Below, piece by piece: positions 1 to 62,335 of a stretch of 64,000 nucleotides of DNA. A program made the translations under genes and the position numbers. The notes under the pieces are model-generated. The model did not search any database, was not told the DNA's origin, and saw nothing but the letters and a program-made list of their open reading frames with translations. Each line of letters starts with the position of its first letter. Positions within the stretch are counted from its first letter, which is position 1. Origin of the DNA: Chthonomonas sp. UBA2785 (GTDB taxonomy: Bacteria > Armatimonadota > Fimbriimonadia > Fimbriimonadales > Fimbriimonadaceae); assembly GCA_002352215.1 (NCBI GenBank), contig DEIB01000038.1:178506-242505 (forward strand), read 5' to 3'.

Positions 1-543
1 AGGAATCACGCACCCGTCTCCAAGTTGTCCCGTTTCGAATGGCTCGCCTGCGGCCAGGTCGGCGAAGGCATCCTCGGCGGTGTAGCCGGGGTGCTCCCCT
101 ACCTCGCGGTAGCTTCCCCTCCATAGGGTCTTGCCCAATTCGTCCACCAGGACCGCCGAGGGCGTGCTGGTGATGCCGTAGGCCGCAGCAATGTCTCCAT
201 CCTTGTCAAACAGTTGCTCACCTTCCACCGTAACCCCCACGAACGGATCGTTCGACGGTCCCGGCTGTGCGCCCACGTTGATCCCCACCCAATTGAGGTC
301 AGGATGTTGTCGCTTGAGGGCGGCCACGTGACCCGTCGCCGCCCGAGAACACGGACATTCCTGTCGATAGAAGTGCAACCAGGTAGTGCCCTCCTTCAAC
401 TTGGCTAATAAACTCGGCGGGGGTGTGACACGGGTCTCCGAATCGACAATTGCTAGAGGCTCATACGCCTTTGGCTTTGTCATTTCCACTTGCCCCGCCA
501 GCATCAAAATGCCAGCGTAAAGGGCCATGGCTCCGAATCCCAT
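1..543 (-). CDS. membrane-anchored thioredoxin-fold protein (C-terminus cut by window edge)
   Basis: Absent from the ORF track because it runs off the window. My minus-strand translation from the ATG at 543-541 reads MGFGAMALYAGILMLAGQVEM...TWLHFYRQECPCSRAATGH...AAAYGITSTPSAVLVDELGKTLWRGSY, with no stop down to position 1. It has an N-terminal hydrophobic anchor, a Cys-Pro-Cys where thioredoxin-fold proteins carry the redox motif, and a T-P loop followed by VLVD..G. Confidence 0.55.
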   Translation of the reverse strand, partial: MGFGAMALYAGILMLAGQVEMTKPKAYEPLAIVDSETRVTPPPSLLAKLKEGTTWLHFYRQECPCSRAATGHVAALKRQHPDLNWVGINVGAQPGPSNDPFVGVTVEGEQLFDKDGDIAAAYGITSTPSAVLVDELGKTLWRGSYREVGEHPGYTAEDAFADLAAGEPFETGQLGDGCVIP

Positions 544-604
544 GTACACTTTCCCCACCTTATAACTCTCCCACGTAAATTTTCGGGAGGTCGGTCAGGA
601 ACCT

Positions 605-985
605 TTAGTGACTTTTTAGGGCCGGGACTTGGCTTTTCTTGCCCCGGGCAGCCAGGATCACCCGGGCCAGGGCGCCCACAACCAGGAGAGCCGGGCCAAA
701 CCGCTGGACCGCCCCGATCGCACCACCGGCGGCGTCATCCACCAACCGCAAAATGCCGGTGGCGCGCACACCCACCTCTTGGGTCACGAGTTGGACTTCC
801 TTGGTGATGGTGTCCACGCGGTTGGTCAAGACCTCGACGCGGCGACTGAGACCCTGGAGCTCGGTGCGAACATCCAGAAGGAGCCGGATGGTAACGCCCG
901 CCACGACAATGCCCACCAGCATAAAGATGCTGCCGAGCAAGGCATAGATTCCAACCGATGTGGTCACCCAAGTTGGAACAGTCAT
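605..985 (-). CDS. small membrane-anchored coiled-coil protein (DUF948-like)
   Basis: 126-aa ORF with an N-terminal TM helix (VGIYALLGSIFMLVGIVVAGV) followed by a heptad-like helix (LLLDVRTELQGLSRRVEVLTNRVDTITKEVQLVTQEV). Its start overlaps the stop of the upstream 860-aa gene (982-985). Confidence 0.55.
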   Translation of the reverse strand: MTVPTWVTTSVGIYALLGSIFMLVGIVVAGVTIRLLLDVRTELQGLSRRVEVLTNRVDTITKEVQLVTQEVGVRATGILRLVDDAAGGAIGAVQRFGPALLVVGALARVILAARGKKSQVPALKSH

Positions 986-3624: not shown

Positions 3625-4326
3625 GTGGCAAGAACGGTGGTGAGCCTGCTGGGCGCGGGGAACGTGTTGGTGAGTGCGCCAGCCTTGGCCACCCTCATCA
3701 CATTCGAAGACCAGGAATGGGAACTGCGGCTCTACGACGCTCACGAAGAGCGTCTCGACCTCGCCGACCTCCTGGCTCGCACACTGAACGATGGCGCGGC
3801 GGGCAGTCGACACCGGATTCGTTCGTCGAATGATCCCGCCGAGATGCTGGAAGATGCGGAAATCGGCCTGCTGATGGTGGATGAAGGCACAGCCCGCCGG
3901 ATGAAGGGCACCCGCCCCCTGGAACTTGACCTGGAAGCGGAAACTCCGCGTTCCGTATTCGAACTCCGGCGCGGAGACCCCAACCAACCCACGCCGCCGG
4001 ACCAACTGAGCCCGCGCACGCGAACTCTGCTCGAAGTCCCCATTGACCAAGAAACCCCCGGCCCCCAACTGATTGCCGAGGCCACCGTTCGACTCCGTAG
4101 CCTCAACACCAACGAAATGCAGTGGTTGTGGCTGGGAACTGAGGTGCCCGACTTGAGTCTGGCCTCGCTCCCTTGGCCCGCGGCCCTCTCGCCCATCCAA
4201 GAACAAGGAATGCCCCACCAAGTGATGCGCTGGGCCATGAAGACTGAACCCATGGATGACCTGCTAAGGCAAGCCCACGACAATCCCCTGCAAGCCTGGC
4301 TGAAGGAGCACATTGGCCGACGGTGA
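3625..4326 (+). CDS. hypothetical protein with GH4-like Rossmann N-terminus
   Basis: 233-aa ORF with a GTG start and balanced acidic/Leu composition. VSLLGAGNVLVSAPALATL...ELRLYDAHEERLD resembles the NAD-binding start of family-4 glycosidases, but the protein is too short and lacks the catalytic half. Confidence 0.45.
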   Translation: MARTVVSLLGAGNVLVSAPALATLITFEDQEWELRLYDAHEERLDLADLLARTLNDGAAGSRHRIRSSNDPAEMLEDAEIGLLMVDEGTARRMKGTRPLELDLEAETPRSVFELRRGDPNQPTPPDQLSPRTRTLLEVPIDQETPGPQLIAEATVRLRSLNTNEMQWLWLGTEVPDLSLASLPWPAALSPIQEQGMPHQVMRWAMKTEPMDDLLRQAHDNPLQAWLKEHIGRR

Positions 4327-12850: not shown

Positions 12851-14775
<1,925 letters not shown>

Positions 14776-34721: not shown

Positions 34722-34866
34722 CCATTGATCGCACCCAAGCGAACATACTAGACTTACTCCGTATTGTTACGGGTTTCCTCCACCGTAAGTTCAAGATCAC
34801 TCCCCTAGCGCCCTTTCCATTGGCATAATTTGTGCGTCTCAGTTGTTGCAACCGGGAGTCACTATC

Positions 34867-35502
34867 ATGAAACTCAATCGAGTCTTTGGCGCGGGCATTC
34901 TCGTGGCGGTCGCCGCGTTTGCACAAGCCGACACTTTAAAGTTCAAGGGCCTTGATGCCAACAAGAGCCAAAACGTCACCATCAAGTACGATGGCGCCAG
35001 CCTTACGGTGGGTGCGGGCCTCGCTCGTCTCTCGCTCAACGGCGGCCCGGACCACTTCGGTCTGTGTGTCGACCTCGACCACTGGAACACCAATGGTCTG
35101 ACCTACGACGTCAACGTCAAGCCGATCGCCCAGCAAGGCCCCAATGCCACGCGCGCTGCCTACCTGCTCAACACGTTCTCTTCGACCGTGACCAGCAAGG
35201 CCCAGGGTGCCGCCCTGCAGCTCGCCGTGTGGGACGTGATCTACGACAACGGTGACGGCTTCTCCAAGGGTCGCTTCCGCACCAGCAGCGTCTCCACCGA
35301 CGCCCTGCTGACGGCCAACACCTACCTCCAGCAGTCCGTGAGCCAAACGAGCGCGGCCGCTGTGTGGTACGAAGCCAAGAATCACGGCAAGTACAACAAG
35401 AGCAACCAGGACTTCATGGCCGCCGCCGTTCCGGAACCGGCCAGCATGATTGCCCTCGGGGCGGGCCTCCTCGCCCTCGCTCGACGACGCCGCCGCGCCT
35501 AA
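34867..35502 (+). CDS. PEP-CTERM-anchored surface protein
   Basis: Signal peptide MKLNRVFGAGILVAVAAFAQA. The C-terminal VPEPASMIALGAGLLALARRRRRA is a canonical PEP-CTERM sorting signal. Confidence 0.85.
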   Translation: MKLNRVFGAGILVAVAAFAQADTLKFKGLDANKSQNVTIKYDGASLTVGAGLARLSLNGGPDHFGLCVDLDHWNTNGLTYDVNVKPIAQQGPNATRAAYLLNTFSSTVTSKAQGAALQLAVWDVIYDNGDGFSKGRFRTSSVSTDALLTANTYLQQSVSQTSAAAVWYEAKNHGKYNKSNQDFMAAAVPEPASMIALGAGLLALARRRRRA

Positions 35503-35523
35503 GCCTGGCTTGTCCCCGACTCG

Positions 35524-35565
35524 ACGCCCGAAGGTTCCGTAACGAACCCTCGGGCGTTTTCTTTC
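35524..35565 (+). terminator. rho-independent terminator
   Basis: CGCCCGAAGG-loop-CCCTCGGGCG followed by TTTTCTTT, 22 nt after the PEP-CTERM gene stop. Confidence 0.75.
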
Positions 35566-35606
35566 GTCAAAGCCTCCAAGCCAAGGTGAACATCCAACCT
35601 TTTGGC

Positions 35607-35629
35607 GTGATATATCAGTAAAATATCAC
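35607..35629. promoter_or_regulatory. AT-rich inverted repeat, candidate operator/-10 region of the ArsR-B12 gene
   Basis: GTGATAT-N9-ATATCAC, with a nested TGATATATCA palindrome. It ends 13 nt upstream of the 35643 start and is conspicuously AT-rich in a GC-rich genome. Confidence 0.45.
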
Positions 35630-35642
35630 TGGAGCATATCGA

Positions 35643-36605
35643 ATGGACATTGTGATGTTGCTGTTGCGCGAGATAAGCGAGGTCTCAAAGCGCACCATCT
35701 TGGCCGAACTCAAGAGCGGCCCACGCAACGTCACCGAGCTTGTGCTCGCCAGTGGCCTGAAGCAGCCAAACGTCAGCAACCACCTCGCCAAGATGCGTGC
35801 CAAGGGAATCATTCGCTCCCACAAGGTGGGCCGGCAAGTGTATTACAGCCTGGCCGGACCGGACGTTGAGACGGCGTTGACCAATCTCCTGAGCCCCCAA
35901 GACGCTGCCGACGAACCGGAGATCATTCTCGACCGGACACTGGTCAAGAAGTTTGCCCGCGCCGCCTGCGCTGCGAATGAAGCCGAATGCACGCAGATTG
36001 TGGACGCCCTTCTCCGCGCCCAAGAGGAGCCCGAGACGATCTACGAGCAACTCTTCGCCGAATCCATGGCGCTGATTGGCGAATGGTGGATGGTCGAAGC
36101 GATTGACGAAGGCCAAGAGCACCTGGCGAGCGCCATTGTCGAGCGCCTCATGGCGCGCGTGTCGCATTTCTCAACGGTGGCCGGGCTGACCAGCAACAAT
36201 ACGGCCCTGGTAGGCTGCTGCGCCGGCAATTGGCACTCCATCGGTGCCCGCATGGTCGCCGATGTGATGCGGATGGCAGGCTGGCGGGTGATGTACTTGG
36301 GCGCGAACGTGCCCACCGAAGCCTTTATCAAGGCCGCCAAGGAGCACGCCCCCGAAATGGTGATGGTGAGCTGCGCCACGGGTGAAACCATGACCGAGTG
36401 CTTGGAACTCATCGAACGCCTGGACGACTGCCGGGGGGCCGAGAAGCAGTTCTCCATCGGCGTCGGCGGCCGGGCCGTGACCGAAAGCCCCCAGCCCTGC
36501 CTGGATGCCGGCGCAGACTTCGTGGCCACCCACCTGCGTGCCATTCGGCACATGGTATTGCCGGAATACGAGCGCGGCGGTGCCTTCCCGAGCGGCGTCT
36601 TCTAA
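35643..36605 (+). CDS. ArsR-family wHTH fused to CarH-like cobalamin-binding module
   Basis: The N-terminal RTILAELKSGPRNVTELVLASGLKQPNVSNHLAKMRAKGIIRSHKVGRQVYYSL is an ArsR/SmtB HTH. The helical bundle carries W-x9-EH (WMVEAIDEGQEH). The Rossmann-like domain carries NWHSIG (DxHxxG type), VSCA (SxL type) and GVGG. Confidence 0.8.
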   Translation: MDIVMLLLREISEVSKRTILAELKSGPRNVTELVLASGLKQPNVSNHLAKMRAKGIIRSHKVGRQVYYSLAGPDVETALTNLLSPQDAADEPEIILDRTLVKKFARAACAANEAECTQIVDALLRAQEEPETIYEQLFAESMALIGEWWMVEAIDEGQEHLASAIVERLMARVSHFSTVAGLTSNNTALVGCCAGNWHSIGARMVADVMRMAGWRVMYLGANVPTEAFIKAAKEHAPEMVMVSCATGETMTECLELIERLDDCRGAEKQFSIGVGGRAVTESPQPCLDAGADFVATHLRAIRHMVLPEYERGGAFPSGVF

Positions 36606-36621
36606 GTCACCGTAAGCACAA

Positions 36622-36676
36622 ACAAAAACGCCCCTCGCGGCCCGGATTCGGGCTCAAGGGGCGTTTTGCCTTTTTG
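36622..36676. terminator. bidirectional rho-independent terminator
   Basis: AAAAACGCCCCT-loop-AGGGGCGTTTTGCCTTTTT, located between the convergent ArsR-B12 gene and rplT. Confidence 0.75.
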
Positions 36677-36692
36677 GAATGGAAGGAAAAAG

Positions 36693-37040
36693 TTAGGCCA
36701 AGGCTTCCTTCACGAGCGCGCGGAACGCGTCCATGTCGGCAATGGCGAGCTCGGACAGCATCTTGCGGTTCACTTGCATGCCCTTTTCGGACATCGCGTG
36801 GATCAAGTCGCTGTACTTGGTGTCGCATTCGTGGCAAGCGGCGCTGATACGCACAATCCACTGCCGCCGAAAATCGCGCTTCTTAGCGCGGCGGTCGCGG
36901 AAGGCGTACTGCCCCGACTTCATTACCTGCTCGTGGGCATTCTTAAAGGCGCCACTCTTGCGCCCGAAGTACCCCGAGGCCTTCTTCAATATCTTGCGGT
37001 GGCGCTTTTGGCGCATGATCCCGCGTTTGACTCGTGCCAT
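36693..37040 (-). CDS. rplT: 50S ribosomal protein L20
   Basis: MARVKRGIMRQKRHRKILKKASGYFG... is canonical L20. Confidence 0.97.
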   Translation of the reverse strand: MARVKRGIMRQKRHRKILKKASGYFGRKSGAFKNAHEQVMKSGQYAFRDRRAKKRDFRRQWIVRISAACHECDTKYSDLIHAMSEKGMQVNRKMLSELAIADMDAFRALVKEALA

Positions 37041-37126: not shown

Positions 37127-37327
37127 TCAGAGCCCGAGCAGTCGGCGAACGCGGCGGCGTTCGGTCTTGCTCAGTTCGGCATCTTGGTCCAGTCGTCGCT
37201 TTTGCGCACCGCTCTTGTTAAAGAACATGTGGTTGTTGTACGACTTACGCCGAATGATCTTGCCCGTCCCCGAGATCTTGAACCGCTTCGCTGCTGTCTT
37301 GCTTGTCTTCAGTTTTGCCTTGGGCAT
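37127..37327 (-). CDS. rpmI: 50S ribosomal protein L35
   Basis: MPKAKLKTSKTAAKRFKISGTGKIIRRK... is canonical L35. An AGGAAG Shine-Dalgarno lies 8 nt upstream. Confidence 0.95.
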   Translation of the reverse strand: MPKAKLKTSKTAAKRFKISGTGKIIRRKSYNNHMFFNKSGAQKRRLDQDAELSKTERRRVRRLLGL

Positions 37328-37868
37328 TCTTTTTGCTTCCTATGGCCTTGGGGTTTATCACCACGACCATTTCCATTCCGCTCATCACGGGATCCCGGTC
37401 AGGTTTCCCAATCTCCTCTACGCGCTCAATGAGCTTCATTAAGCGTGCTCGGCCCACTTCGGGGTGAGTTAGCTGCTTCTTGCGGAAGCGGCAAACCACA
37501 CGCACCTTGTGGCCTTCTTCAAGGAACTTGATCGTCGAGCGCACCGCCACCATCAGGTCGTGGTCCGCAATCACCGGGCTTATTTTTATACCCTTGACTT
37601 CTTGCTTCTTAGGCTTGTTGTCCTTTGTCCGCTTGGCGAGCTCGTACTTGTACTTGCCGTAATCCACGATGCGGCACACCGGCGGATCGGCCTGAGCGGC
37701 CACCAAAACGAGGTCAAGCCCTTCGGCCTGTGCTCGATTCACAGCCTCCCGGGTATCCAGGACCCCTAGCTGCGCGCCATCGGACCCGATGACCCGCACC
37801 TCCTTCAAACGAAACAGCCGTTCGTTGATGTCCGGGAGCGGCTCACGCCGGACCGGACGTCGGCCCAT
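37245..37868 (-). CDS. infC: translation initiation factor IF-3 (with C-terminal extension)
   Basis: INERLFRLKEVRVIGSDGAQLGV, DLVLVAAQADPPVCRIVDYGKYKYE and EGHKVRVVCRFRKKQLTHPEVG. The ORF continues about 35 codons past the usual ...NPK end and overlaps rpmI. Confidence 0.92.
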   Translation of the reverse strand: MGRRPVRREPLPDINERLFRLKEVRVIGSDGAQLGVLDTREAVNRAQAEGLDLVLVAAQADPPVCRIVDYGKYKYELAKRTKDNKPKKQEVKGIKISPVIADHDLMVAVRSTIKFLEEGHKVRVVCRFRKKQLTHPEVGRARLMKLIERVEEIGKPDRDPVMSGMEMVVVINPKAIGSKKNAQGKTEDKQDSSEAVQDLGDGQDHSA

Positions 37869-41574: not shown

Positions 41575-43236
41575 CTAATTTACCTTCCCTTGAACGTACT
41601 CGGCGATGGACCGGCACTCCGCCGCCATCGGGTCGGCAAAGTGGCCCAACGCCTTCACCAGCGCGCCGGCGGTGTCAATGCTGGTGAGGCACGCGACGCC
41701 CGTTTCGATGCATGCCCGGCGAATGCGGAGCGAGTCGGCGGAATTGGCACCGGGGGTGGGGGTATTGACCATCAGGCTGACTTCACCCGTGTAGATGCGT
41801 TGCAGCAAGTTGGGTTCGCCGTGGGAGACTTTCTCCAGCTTCTCACACGGCACACCAGCGGCGGTGAGGGCATTGAAGGTGCCTTCGGTCGCTCCCAGCG
41901 AGTACCCGCGATCCACCAGTTGCCGCCCTATCGCCACGGCTTCGGGCTTGTCCTCGTCCCGCACGGTGAGAATGACCTGCCCGGCGGCGCGGAACGTCAC
42001 CCCGCTAGCGACCAAAGCCTTGTAGAGCGCCGCTTCGTAAGTTACGTCCAGCCCGAGCACTTCCCCGGTGGATTTCATCTCCGGACCGAGCGCGGGGTCG
42101 ACCAGGCGCAACTTTTGGAAGCTGAAAACCGGGGCCTTGACCGCCCACAGGGGACGTCGGTTGGCCGGGGGGTCTTGGGTTTCGGGGGCGATGAATCCGC
42201 CCGTCTGCGGGGCAAGGTTGCCCGTGTGCGGCCAGGCCGGGGCGTCGGGGTCCAGCACCCACAGGCCGCTGGTGTAGCCCCAATCGGCCAGCTTGCCGCC
42301 CAGCAGGCAGTGGGTGGCCAGTGCCACCATCGGGATGCCGGTCACCTTGCTGATATAGGGCACCGTGCGGCTGGCGCGCGGGTTCACTTCAAGGATATAG
42401 GGCTCGCCATCCACCACCACGAATTGGATGTTCATGAGGCCCTTGATTTCGAGCTTGCGGGCCAGCGCACAGGCGGCGCGGACCATCTTGCCCTGCGTTT
42501 CGGGGCTGAGCCTCGGCGGCGGGTAAGCGGCCATCGAATCGCCACTGTGGACGCCTGCGCGCTCCACGTGCTCCATGATGCCGGGCACCACCGTGTCCAC
42601 GCCGTCACTGATCACGTCCACTTCGGCTTCGGTACCCGTGAAATACTTGTCCACCAGCACCGGCTGGCCGGGGTTGGCGGCTTCGGCTTCGCCGTAAAAC
42701 TGTTCCAGGGCCTCGGGCTCGCTGACGATCTCCATCGCGCGGCCACCGAGTACAAAACTCGGGCGCACCAGCACCGGGTAACCAATCTCTTCGATGACTT
42801 TGCGGGCTTCGGCCAGGGAGCGCACTGCCCGCCCCGGCGGCTTGGGCAAATCGAGCTCCAAGAGGAGACGTTCGAACTGGTCGCGGTCTTCGGCCAGGGC
42901 GATGGCCTTGGCGCTGGTGCCGTAGATCGGGAAGCCCTCCGCTTCCAGGCGCTCGGCCAGGTTGATGGCGGTCTGGCCGCCGAACTGCACCACGATGCCG
43001 TCGACCTTCTCGTGCCGCACGATGCGAGCCACGTCGTCGAAAGTGACCGGCTCAAAGTACAGGCCGTCGCCGGTGTCGAAGTCAGTGCTGACGGTTTCCG
43101 GGTTGTTGTTGATGATCAGGGCGCGGTGGCCCGCTTCGCGCAGCGCCCAAACGCAGTGAACACACGAGTAATCGAACTCAATCCCTTGCCCGATGCGGAT
43201 GGGGCCGGACCCCAAGACCAAAACCGTCTTCGCCAT
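41575..43236 (-). CDS. carB: carbamoyl-phosphate synthase large subunit, C-terminal half (second ATP-grasp + MGS-like allosteric domain)
   Basis: 553 aa. It begins MAKTVLVLGSGPIRIGQGIEFDYSCVH, the start of the second homologous half of CarB. It continues through the ATP-grasp fold (MNIQFVV, ILEVNPRASRT) and the MGS-like tail. Confidence 0.92.
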   Translation of the reverse strand: MAKTVLVLGSGPIRIGQGIEFDYSCVHCVWALREAGHRALIINNNPETVSTDFDTGDGLYFEPVTFDDVARIVRHEKVDGIVVQFGGQTAINLAERLEAEGFPIYGTSAKAIALAEDRDQFERLLLELDLPKPPGRAVRSLAEARKVIEEIGYPVLVRPSFVLGGRAMEIVSEPEALEQFYGEAEAANPGQPVLVDKYFTGTEAEVDVISDGVDTVVPGIMEHVERAGVHSGDSMAAYPPPRLSPETQGKMVRAACALARKLEIKGLMNIQFVVVDGEPYILEVNPRASRTVPYISKVTGIPMVALATHCLLGGKLADWGYTSGLWVLDPDAPAWPHTGNLAPQTGGFIAPETQDPPANRRPLWAVKAPVFSFQKLRLVDPALGPEMKSTGEVLGLDVTYEAALYKALVASGVTFRAAGQVILTVRDEDKPEAVAIGRQLVDRGYSLGATEGTFNALTAAGVPCEKLEKVSHGEPNLLQRIYTGEVSLMVNTPTPGANSADSLRIRRACIETGVACLTSIDTAGALVKALGHFADPMAAECRSIAEYVQGKVN

Positions 43237-49732: not shown

Positions 49733-51382
49733 ATGCGCAAAATCCTCGTGATCGGGAGCGGACCTATCATCATTGGACAGGCCGCCGAGTTCGACTACGC
49801 GGGCACGCAAGCCTGCAAGAGCCTCCGCGAAGAAGGCTACGAAGTCGTTCTCATCAATTCCAACCCCGCCACGATCATGACGGACCTGGAAACGGCGGAC
49901 CGCGTCTACATCGAGCCGCTGACGCCCGAATTCTGCGAGCGCGTGATTGCCCGGGAGCGCCCCGACGGCCTTCTGCCCACTTTGGGCGGCCAAACTGGCC
50001 TCAACCTCGCCAGCCAACTTGCGCAGTTGGGCATCCTGGAAAAGTACAACGTCAAGCTCCTCGGCACCCCACTGGAGGCGATCCAGAAGGCCGAAGACCG
50101 CGAGCTTTTTCGCTCACTCATGCGCGAACTCCGCGAGCCCGTACCCGAGAGCTGGATTGTGGAAAGCGAAGCCGACCTGCAGGCCATCCTCGATGTCGTG
50201 CCCTATCCCTGCATCGTGCGGCCCGCTTACACCCTGGGCGGCACCGGCGGCGGCGTGGCCACGACCCGAGACGAACTCTGGGAAATCGGCCGCAAGGGCC
50301 TCAAGCTCTCCATGCGCAGCCAATTGATGATCGAGCGCAGTCTGCTGGGCTGGAAGGAGGTCGAGTACGAGGTCATGCGAGACCGCCTTGGGAACGTCAT
50401 CACCATCTGCAACATGGAGAACCTGGACCCGATGGGCGTCCACACCGGCGACAGCATCGTGGTGGCCCCCAGCCAGACCCTGAGCGACGTGGAATATCAC
50501 CTGCTGCGCACGGCTTCCCTTCGCATTATTGATGCGCTCGGCATCCAGGGGGGCTGCAACGTGCAACTGGCGGTAAACCCGGATTCGTTCGACTACTACG
50601 TTATTGAAGTCAACCCTCGGGTGTCGCGCTCCTCGGCGCTGGCGAGCAAGGCCACCGGGTACCCCATTGCGCGGGTCTCGGCGAAAATTGCCATCGGCCA
50701 CACGCTGGATGAGATTGAGAACAGCGTGACCAAGACCACCAAGGCGTGCTTTGAACCGGCGCTGGACTACTGCGTGGTCAAGATTCCGCGCTGGCCGTTT
50801 GACAAGTTCGCCTCCGGCGACCGAGGCCTGAGCACCCAAATGAAGGCCACCGGCGAAGTCATGGCCATCGACCGCACTTTTGAAGCGGCTTTGCTCAAGG
50901 CGATTCGCGGGCTGGAAGTGAAGCAACGCGACCTCCGCCACGATGGCATGTCCGCGCTGGCGGATGATGATCTCAAGACGGCGGTGCGCCAACCAACAGA
51001 CGAGCGCCTGTGGGCGCTGGCCGAAGCCCTGCGCCGAGGCTGGACGGTTGCCGAAGTGCGCCGCCTGAGCCGCGTAGACCTGTGGTTCCTAGAGAAGATC
51101 GAGGCGATGGTCCGCATGGAGCAGGCCCTGGTGCAAGCGGGGGCCGGAGCCACCGAAAATCTCTTAGAGGAGGCTTTGCGCATGGGATACAGCCCCACCG
51201 CGATTCTTGACTTGACCCAAGGCGGCGAGGCTGTCTCCGGGAAATTGGCCACTTTTGAGGGTATGTTTGCCTACAAGATGGTGGATACGTGCGCGGCCGA
51301 GTTTGAATCCGCCACTCCCTACTTTTACGCGACGGTGGCGGGGTCGAGCGACTTCGTGCAGCCCAAAACCCCCGCGAACTAA
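49733..51382 (+). CDS. carB: carbamoyl-phosphate synthase large subunit, N-terminal half (first ATP-grasp + oligomerisation domain)
   Basis: 549 aa. [75 protein letters not shown] and the oligomerisation domain are present. The protein stops where full-length CarB would continue into the second half. Confidence 0.93.

Positions 51383-60411: not shown

Positions 60412-62335
<1,924 letters not shown>

Follow-up and report, generated by a model that had tools for sequence, protein, structure and literature searches.

A predicted B12-dependent regulator with an ArsR/SmtB winged-helix head and a CarH-like cobalamin module from Armatimonadota

A gene in a 64,000-nucleotide stretch of DNA from Chthonomonas sp. 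UBA2785 (contig DEIB01000038.1 of assembly GCA_002352215.1, positions 178,506 to 242,505; hereafter, the window) encodes a 320-residue protein in which an ArsR/SmtB head is joined to a cobalamin (B12) module resembling that of the photoreceptor CarH. This architecture is virtually certain. The protein belongs to a sizeable family, here called ArsR-B12, and a dyad, AYATCA-N8-TGATRT, is strongly associated with the ArsR-B12 gene at the family level. We propose that the protein is a B12-dependent, probably light-released autorepressor, an account that, taken as a whole chain, we hold to be slightly better than even. It rests on the CarH, photocobilin and ArsR families, from which we infer that the protein binds cobalamin and responds to light, as well as the sign of regulation and the oligomeric state; any target other than the gene's own promoter is conjectural.

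A sequence-only reading of this DNA had proposed an ArsR-type DNA-binding domain fused to a CarH-like B12 module, and Pfam, NCBIfam and the predicted fold all bear this out. Pfam recognizes HTH_5 at residues 16–58 (E = 7e-8), B12-binding_2 at residues 102–172 (E = 3e-9) and B12-binding at residues 188–294 (E = 6e-23). The NCBIfam model HTH_metalloreg (NF033788), an ArsR/SmtB subfamily model, matches residues 7–78 with 63.8 bits (cut-off 55). The CarH equivalog TransRegCarH (NF052513) reaches 55.8 bits against a cut-off of 400, with the B12 module alone aligned. An AlphaFold2 (AF2) model of the protein, built on 93 family sequences, has a mean predicted local distance difference test score (pLDDT) of 93.9 and a predicted template-modelling score of 0.76. 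In this model, the ArsR domain consists of helices at residues 3–11, 14–24, 30–37, 41–53 and 73–83, with strands at residues 57–62 and 65–70, and about 10 residues remain after the Rossmann fold at the other end of the chain. The span given in that reading starts at 35607, which is the first base of a palindrome; the gene itself begins at 35643. Coordinates of the features are collected in Table 1.

The winged helix-turn-helix peptide QPNVSNHLAKMRAKGIIRSHKVGRQVYYSL spans residues 41–70 of the head, for which a sequence search of the Protein Data Bank (PDB) returned ArsR matches including 6o8k (E = 4e-8). Its recognition helix, of the KQPNVSNHL type, is strongly constrained, with Q41, P42, N43, S45, N46, H47 and L48 invariant in all 118 family members compared. 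This helix and the winged-helix fold are shared with ArsR/SmtB metalloregulators such as CmtR and a small ArsR described below. Unlike these metalloregulators, the protein has no metal ligands at the α3N and α5 sites, since neither α3 (VTELVLAS) nor α5 (PDVETALTNLL) contains a Cys or His ligand, and a 230-residue cobalamin module follows α5. A role of the head as metal sensor was therefore ruled out. Judged by the sequence of its head, the protein is an ArsR/SmtB member minus the metal-sensing sites of that family.

The sequence of Thermus thermophilus CarH (TtCarH) was checked against the PDB and then aligned with the 118 family members. All the peptide motifs singled out earlier are found in the protein, namely W149-x9-E159-H160, N196-W-H198-S-I-G201, S243-C-A and G273-V-G-G276. 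W149 is equivalent to W131 of TtCarH, E159-H160 to E141-H142, and H198 to H177, the lower axial ligand. E159 and H160 are present in every member and H198 in 117. The W-x9-EH motif holds for the window protein but not for the family as a whole: position 149 is Tyr in 76 members (64%), Trp in 37 and Phe in 4, and W148, one residue before the position of the CarH Trp, is invariant, so that the family motif is W[YW]x9EH.

CarH homologues are recognized by Wx9EH together with a B12 motif, ExHx2Gx41SxV/Tx22-27GG, a combination that MetH lacks (PMC8156234). The counterpart of this B12 motif in the window protein is N196-x-H198-x2-G201-x41-S243-x-A245-x29-G275-G276. The His, Gly, Ser, GG and 41-residue spacing are kept, whereas Asn stands in place of Glu and Ala in place of Val/Thr, and the last spacer has a length of 29 residues. 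The SignatureFinder signature of light-responsive cobalamin-binding domains comprises GxxW, EH, GxxH and GxxxP (PMC11796333), and all four elements are present (G146xxW149, E159H160, G195xxH198 and G220xxxP224). The EH, the lower-ligand His, GxxxP and GG show little or no variation across the 118 members.

A Foldseek comparison of the model with the PDB ranked photocobilins (8j2x, 8j2w, 8j2y), CtMerR (8jbs, 8jbt) and CarH (5c8d, 5c8e) highest, all with a probability of 1.00; methyltransferase corrinoid proteins, MetH and AerR (7te2, a significant match) were also found. The PDB sequence search gave the same order, with E-values of 3e-20 for a photocobilin, about 5e-7 for CarH and 9e-4 for AerR (7te2). 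The closest B12 modules, which share the light-responsive signature, are thus those of the photocobilins SasPcob (8J2W/8J2X) and AbDPcob (8J2Y) and of CtMerR, a MerR-family B12 domain from Chloracidobacterium (8JBS/8JBT). Photocobilins, unlike the window protein, have a globin domain that binds biliverdin and lack a DNA-binding head, and CtMerR differs in its MerR head. Photocobilin identity was ruled out, as Pfam finds no globin, bilin-binding or phycobilisome-like domain. Judging from these motifs and relatives, the window protein very probably binds cobalamin, and a response to light is reasonably likely.

What might have seemed a singular fusion is a sizeable conserved family of Armatimonadota. 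A word-indexed search returned 235 relatives, more than 100 of them full length with the same three Pfam domains and 42–55% identity; where a source gives a name, it is Fimbriimonadaceae, Armatimonadetes or Chthonomonas. When 1.84 billion representatives were searched exhaustively with a profile, about 95 clusters (50% identity) matched along their full length, and the matches ranking below them share the B12 module only. All named examples are from Armatimonadota, where the family is common. An identical protein is recorded in NCBI assembly GCA_002455365.1, and the closest complete genome, that of Armatimonadetes bacterium Uphvl-Ar2, encodes a protein with 88% identity. The nearest B12 modules that lack an ArsR head are photoglobin-B12 fusions. 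The next-best proteins sampled (P0243, P0237 and P0219/P0225) included XRE(HTH_3)-B12, B12-response-regulator receiver and photoglobin-B12 fusions, indicating that several non-MerR output domains have been joined to a photoreceptor-type module.

Family proteins are labeled by NCBI only as 'metalloregulator ArsR/SmtB family transcription factor', and by JGI as 'MtbC1' or 'MerR light-induced regulator'. To our knowledge, every characterized B12-dependent light-sensing transcription factor has a MerR head. The view that no ArsR-headed version has been characterized stands as far as the searchable literature goes, where no paper describing an ArsR-B12 fusion was found; the SignatureFinder survey reports fusions to a generic 'HTH' only (PMC11796333). 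The protein is best filed as a putative ArsR-scaffold, B12-dependent one-component light regulator with a different operator, uncharacterized in that literature.

Since the recognition helix is invariant across the family, a conserved half-site was expected in the DNA upstream of the gene. No perfect palindrome common to the orthologous upstream regions at a fixed position was found. Enriched words fall into two groups, -10-like words (AGTAGAAT/GTAnAAT) and ATCA/TGAT boxes, which peak 21–40 nt before the start codon; TGATA/TATCA was observed 55 times where 23 occurrences would be expected (z = 6.6). Generic -10-like hexamers are enriched as well, which makes comparing the TGATA 5-mer with other intergenic DNA a weak control, and it was replaced by two others, a spacing-specific dyad test and the promoters of acyl-CoA dehydrogenase (ACAD) genes that have no adjacent regulator. 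In the first, ATCA-N8-T[AG][AT]T was found in 18 of 87 non-redundant upstream regions, where dinucleotide shuffles predict 0.6, and its 8-nt spacing does not vary. The variant ATCA-N8-TAWTAT occurs in 9 regions, and not once with N7 or N9. The best dyads have perfect 8-bp arms (ATACATCA-N8-TGATGTAT, in L108 and L142), and in many lineages the right arm is also a TATTAT or TAATAT -10.

With at most one mismatch, AYATCA-N8-TGATRT has 15 matches across the 1.70 Mb scanned, and 13 of these lie within 155 nt upstream of a gene whose product has a KQPNVSNHL-type helix (12 ArsR-B12 regulators and the small ArsR of locus L080). The matches include distant Chthonomonadales-type copies (30–37% identity) that were not used for deriving the pattern. 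At two or fewer mismatches, the dyad is found in 26 of the 87 regulator upstream regions, compared to 16 of 870 random 150-nt segments. ACAD promoters without an adjacent regulator do contain the AGTAGAAT -10, but TGATA/ATCA boxes number only 2 in 3.6 kb. As these promoters are essentially boxless, the dyad goes with the regulator gene rather than with promoters in general.

The L080 protein (454..843) is a small Anaerolineales ArsR of 152 residues with the KQPNVSNHL helix and no B12 domain, encoded upstream of a heavy-metal P-type ATPase. A dyad of the same kind as at the ArsR-B12 family level, GTATCA-N8-TGATGT, lies about 45 nt upstream of its gene. The link between helix and dyad thus extends outside the ArsR-B12 family.

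In the window, the sequence-only reading had drawn the operator as an AT-rich inverted repeat, GTGATAT-N9-ATATCAC. The repeat is exact and correctly placed, but in this form it probably does not represent the operator unit. The same bases also read as a 10-bp palindrome, TGATATATCA, at 35608..35617, and hold two 11-bp direct repeats, GTGATATATCA and GTAAAATATCA; in terms of the hexamer words, they form an everted palindrome, TGAT-N13-ATCA, and the abutting palindrome TGATATATCA. Perfect 7+7 inverted repeats with spacers of 0–12 nt number 66 in the window (about 0.06 per 60 nt), making the palindrome alone weakly significant, and it is the only one among the 66 with AT-rich arms. Further copies were not found when the window was scanned for GTGATAT-N9-ATATCAC (up to 3 mismatches) and TGATATATCA (up to 1 mismatch), so that there is one site only.

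Apart from 3 variable nt, a phylogenetic footprint at this position is shared unchanged by the window and its four closest relatives (L001–L004, 87–89% protein identity), while the 5' untranslated region and the DNA upstream of the footprint diverge and contain an indel. The conserved block at the palindrome spans 23 nt. All four relatives have C where the left arm begins with G in the window; as the outermost G/C of the arms is not conserved, the conserved arms are TGATAT and ATATCA. The spacer and right arm of the palindrome contain GTAAAAT, which matches the lineage -10 consensus, (A)GTAnAAT, obtained from 8-mers enriched in orthologous intergenic regions and from a Gibbs motif found there, and which is likely to be the -10. 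A scan of 35400..36800 for sigma-70 and terminator consensus sequences found nothing.

These features suggest how a one-component transcription factor might operate, in which the metal-site-free ArsR/SmtB winged helix would read DNA and the CarH-type cobalamin module would act as sensor. The module would bind cobalamin, most likely adenosylcobalamin (AdoCbl), with His198 as the lower axial ligand and the W148/W149...E159-H160 cap covering the upper ligand. In the dark, the holo-protein would occupy ATCA/TGAT half-sites over the -10 of its own promoter and repress transcription. Light would cleave the Co–C bond, and the resulting change in the conformation or oligomeric state of the sensor would release the DNA.

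CarH and class I LitR (T. thermophilus, Myxococcus xanthus and Bacillus megaterium) are AdoCbl-dependent light-sensing repressors. The window protein resembles them in its one-component order of DNA-binding domain, flexible linker, four-helix bundle and Rossmann B12 domain, in the Wx9EH cap, the lower-ligand His and the GxxxP and GG motifs, and in a promoter-overlapping site, predicted here. It differs from CarH in its ArsR/SmtB (HTH_5) head, Pfam finding no MerR model, and in its predicted family operator, a 6-8-6 inverted repeat unlike the 11-bp direct repeats of CarH. Although it appears to work like a CarH/LitR photoreceptor-repressor, it is not a member of the CarH family, because the MerR head is missing and the equivalog score is below the cut-off. 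ArsR domains dimerize on their own, so the oligomerization logic may also differ from that of CarH.

Several observations, in the module, the DNA and the genomic context, weigh against a light-released autorepressor. In the module, Asn, or Ser in some relatives, takes the place of the acidic residue of ExHxxG, and position 149 is Tyr in most family members; the 29-residue last spacer is another departure from CarH. CarH His132 is the upper ligand of the light state, forming a bis-His adduct. Its equivalent is absent from the family, whose members carry K, E, Q or M at position 150. Of the 118 members, 115 have Cys116, 115 have Cys192 and 83 have Cys244. Cys116 is family-specific, being Ala in TtCarH and in a photocobilin, and could serve as a ligand in the light state or as a redox site.

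The missing His132 and the conserved cysteines would fit an AerR/PpaA-like regulator, or of a redox or thiol sensor that uses photolyzed or non-alkyl cobalamin or Cys116/Cys192 to respond to an oxidative or cofactor-state signal. AerR/PpaA antirepressors also combine B12-binding_2 and B12-binding, in their case in light-dependent regulation, and AerR (7te2) is a significant structural match. However, the EH cap, the defining feature of AdoCbl-type photoreceptors, does not vary in the family, the AerR sequence match is much weaker than that of the photocobilin, and Cys192, which also occurs in a photocobilin, is not specific to the ArsR-B12 family. AerR, in addition, has no DNA-binding domain and acts through CrtJ, whereas the window protein has its own. 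We regard an AerR-like or thiol-based sensor as very unlikely. More improbable still is a degenerate module that serves as a ligand-independent oligomerization domain, as in CarA, the M. xanthus paralog of CarH. CarA proves that such degeneration happens (PMC8156234), but it lacks Wx9EH, while the ArsR-B12 family keeps the EH, the lower-ligand His, GxxxP and GG in all or nearly all of the 118 members compared.

As to the DNA, generic -10-like hexamers are enriched 5–6 fold in the regulator upstream regions, and the promoter itself could thus account for part of the signal. Some of the counted regions had served to derive the dyad, which makes the counts partly circular. The window has no canonical dyad at two or fewer mismatches; the best match, CCAACC-N8-TGATAT at 35594..35613, a degenerate dyad that forms part of the footprint, has 3 mismatches (2 in L001 and L004), so that binding there would rest on half-site words in an unusual arrangement. 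The enriched -10-like hexamers, the lack of a canonical dyad, the fit of GTAAAAT to the lineage -10 and the non-conserved outer base of the palindrome favor an AT-rich palindrome that is promoter only and conserved as such, the true operator, if any, lying elsewhere. We consider this unlikely, since ACAD promoters from these organisms show the AGTAGAAT -10 without TGATA/ATCA boxes, the hexamers TGATAT and ATATCA match the arms of the family dyad exactly, and a conserved block of 23 nt far exceeds a -10 hexamer. The element drawn earlier is only partly right: it has the right place and the right words, and the family dyad differs from it in polarity and spacing. On the sequence comparisons, the protein probably binds somewhere within 35594..35629, and we are somewhat doubtful that the palindrome is the exact bound unit.

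With respect to genomic context, no carotenoid-synthesis or photolyase genes were identified among the main open reading frames of the window with Pfam, and no light-related genes were found in the four orthologous flanks with annotated genes. In most family members, the gene is divergent from a highly conserved short-chain ACAD (62–82% identity between loci), which is followed by a gene for a secreted protein of 320–360 residues with a signal peptide and no Pfam or NCBIfam family. About 40 loci from genomes and 33 from metagenomes show this divergent pairing (L005–L046, L053/54, L059, L073–75, L078, L085–L088 and 33 of L089–L164; e.g. L085 5723..7845), while the other neighbors vary. The best NCBIfam match of the ACAD is acryloyl-CoA reductase/propionyl-CoA dehydrogenase, at 260–288 bits, far below the cut-off of 640. 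The ACAD operon is a candidate regulatory target. This assignment is weakened because the dyad overlaps the -10 of the regulator and not the ACAD promoter, and because the pairing is lost in the lineage of the window.

The same pairing raises the alternative that the protein senses B12 availability, its holo- and apo-forms differing in how they bind DNA, with a metabolic output such as the ACAD operon, and that any light sensitivity is incidental. Its breadth across genome and metagenome loci, the best NCBIfam match of the ACAD, although far below its cut-off, and the lack of photoprotective genes near copies with annotated flanks would all fit, as would the inherent requirement of CarH-type regulators for B12 in DNA binding. 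Propionate-shunt genes of C. elegans, by analogy, are repressed by B12. Against this alternative stand the full light-responsive signature, in a module whose closest relatives are photoreceptors, the position of the dyad on the -10 of the regulator and not on the ACAD promoter, the near absence of boxes from ACAD promoters without an adjacent regulator and the missing pairing in the lineage of the window. A sensor of B12 availability is, in our judgment, improbable. The ACAD loci that lack both an adjacent regulator and the boxes are L089, L090 and L153, which may not belong to the lineage of the window. In these loci (around 3970..4003) and in others from Armatimonadota, a -10-like AGTAGAAT lies about 6–15 nt before the ACAD start, which suggests leaderless or near-leaderless mRNAs.

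A light-released autorepressor of this kind might belong to a distinct class of B12 photoreceptors, built from a constitutive ArsR dimer with CarH-like head-to-tail contacts, that forms dark assemblies on half-site arrays and couples light or B12 to acyl-CoA oxidation through the ACAD operon. This extension is speculative, and we rate it improbable. Under it, most lineages would use canonical 6-8-6 dyads and the lineage of the window everted or direct 11-bp repeats, and the output would be fatty-acid or short-chain acyl-CoA oxidation rather than carotenogenesis.

A conserved ArsR-headed family would demonstrate that the cobalamin photosensor is able to control a DNA-binding scaffold of another structure, one that dimerizes on its own. 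It would also offer optogenetics a green-light switch with a new compact operator unrelated to that of CarH. Armatimonadota are a poorly studied phylum, widespread among genomes assembled from environmental samples, and the family would be a first handle on light or B12 signaling in this group. Given the operator consensus predicted here, ATACATCA-N8-TGATGTAT, and an ACAD neighbor that is conserved, the system can be tested directly.

Table 1. Features of the ArsR-B12 gene and its surroundings, in window coordinates.
Feature	Position	Strand	Basis or remark
Upstream terminator hairpin and U-tract of the PEP-CTERM gene	35523..35566	+	folding
Phylogenetic footprint, CAACCTTTTG + 3 variable nt + TGATATATCAGTAAAATATCACT	35595..35630	.	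alignment of window and L001–L004
Exact palindrome GTGATAT-N9-ATATCAC	35607..35629	.	sequence; ends 13 nt before ATG
Candidate -10, GTAAAAT	35618..35624	+	matches lineage consensus
Shine-Dalgarno-like GGAG	35631..35634	+	read from sequence; 8 nt before ATG
ArsR-B12 gene, complete open reading frame, 320 residues, ATG start	35643..36605	+	sequence, Pfam, NCBIfam, AF2 model
ArsR/SmtB winged-helix domain, residues 1–83 (α1–α5 and β wing)	35643..35891	+	NCBIfam, AF2
Recognition helix, residues 41–53, QPNVSNHLAKMRA	35763..35801	+	family alignment
Inter-domain linker, residues 84–97	35892..35933	+	AF2 (10-residue block with pLDDT 66); poorly conserved
Four-helix bundle (B12-binding_2), residues 98–176, with G146-x-W148-W149-x9-E159-H160	35934..36170	+	Pfam, AF2, alignment
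Cys116 codon	35988..35990	+	family alignment
W149-x9-E159-H160, equivalent of the CarH Ado-capping motif	36087..36122	+	alignment to PDB-verified TtCarH
Rossmann-type B12-binding domain, residues 187–310	36201..36572	+	Pfam, AF2, alignment
Cys192 codon	36216..36218	+	family alignment
Cys244 codon	36372..36374	+	family alignment
Bidirectional terminator hairpin between the ArsR-B12 gene and rplT	36625..36677	.	folding

The monocistronic layout with flanking terminators that had been proposed agrees with the folding analysis, in which strong hairpins with U-tracts are found on both sides of the gene, although the strict consensus scan reported none. The upstream hairpin (35523..35558) has a folding energy of -24.1 kcal/mol (z = -4.5), and its stem is kept in L001–L004 with base changes between copies. 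The downstream hairpin (36625..36667) has z-scores of -3.3/-3.6. Cobalamin-synthesis or transport genes were not found among the main open reading frames of the window by Pfam, and an Rfam search of the whole 64 kb found no family at gathering score, with no tRNA, riboswitch or cobalamin riboswitch.

The gene immediately upstream (34843..35502, + strand) encodes a PEP-CTERM (exosortase-sorting) protein. Within about 10 kb, it is accompanied on the upstream side by a Liv-type ABC transporter and an unknown protein; on the downstream side are rplT, rpmI, infC, a FadB-like enzyme, a HAD hydrolase and carB. The remaining main open reading frames of the window have housekeeping-type or uncharacterized Pfam matches, or none. 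The 3' end of infC (37245..37868, - strand) overlaps the start of rpmI (37127..37327, - strand) by 83 nt, and the overlap is called likewise in a public assembly of the same species (L084). The large subunit of carbamoyl-phosphate synthase is apparently split, with halves at 41575..43236 (- strand) and 49733..51382 (+ strand). The window also contains two copies of groEL (Cpn60), at 12851..14473 (- strand) and 60725..62335 (+ strand).

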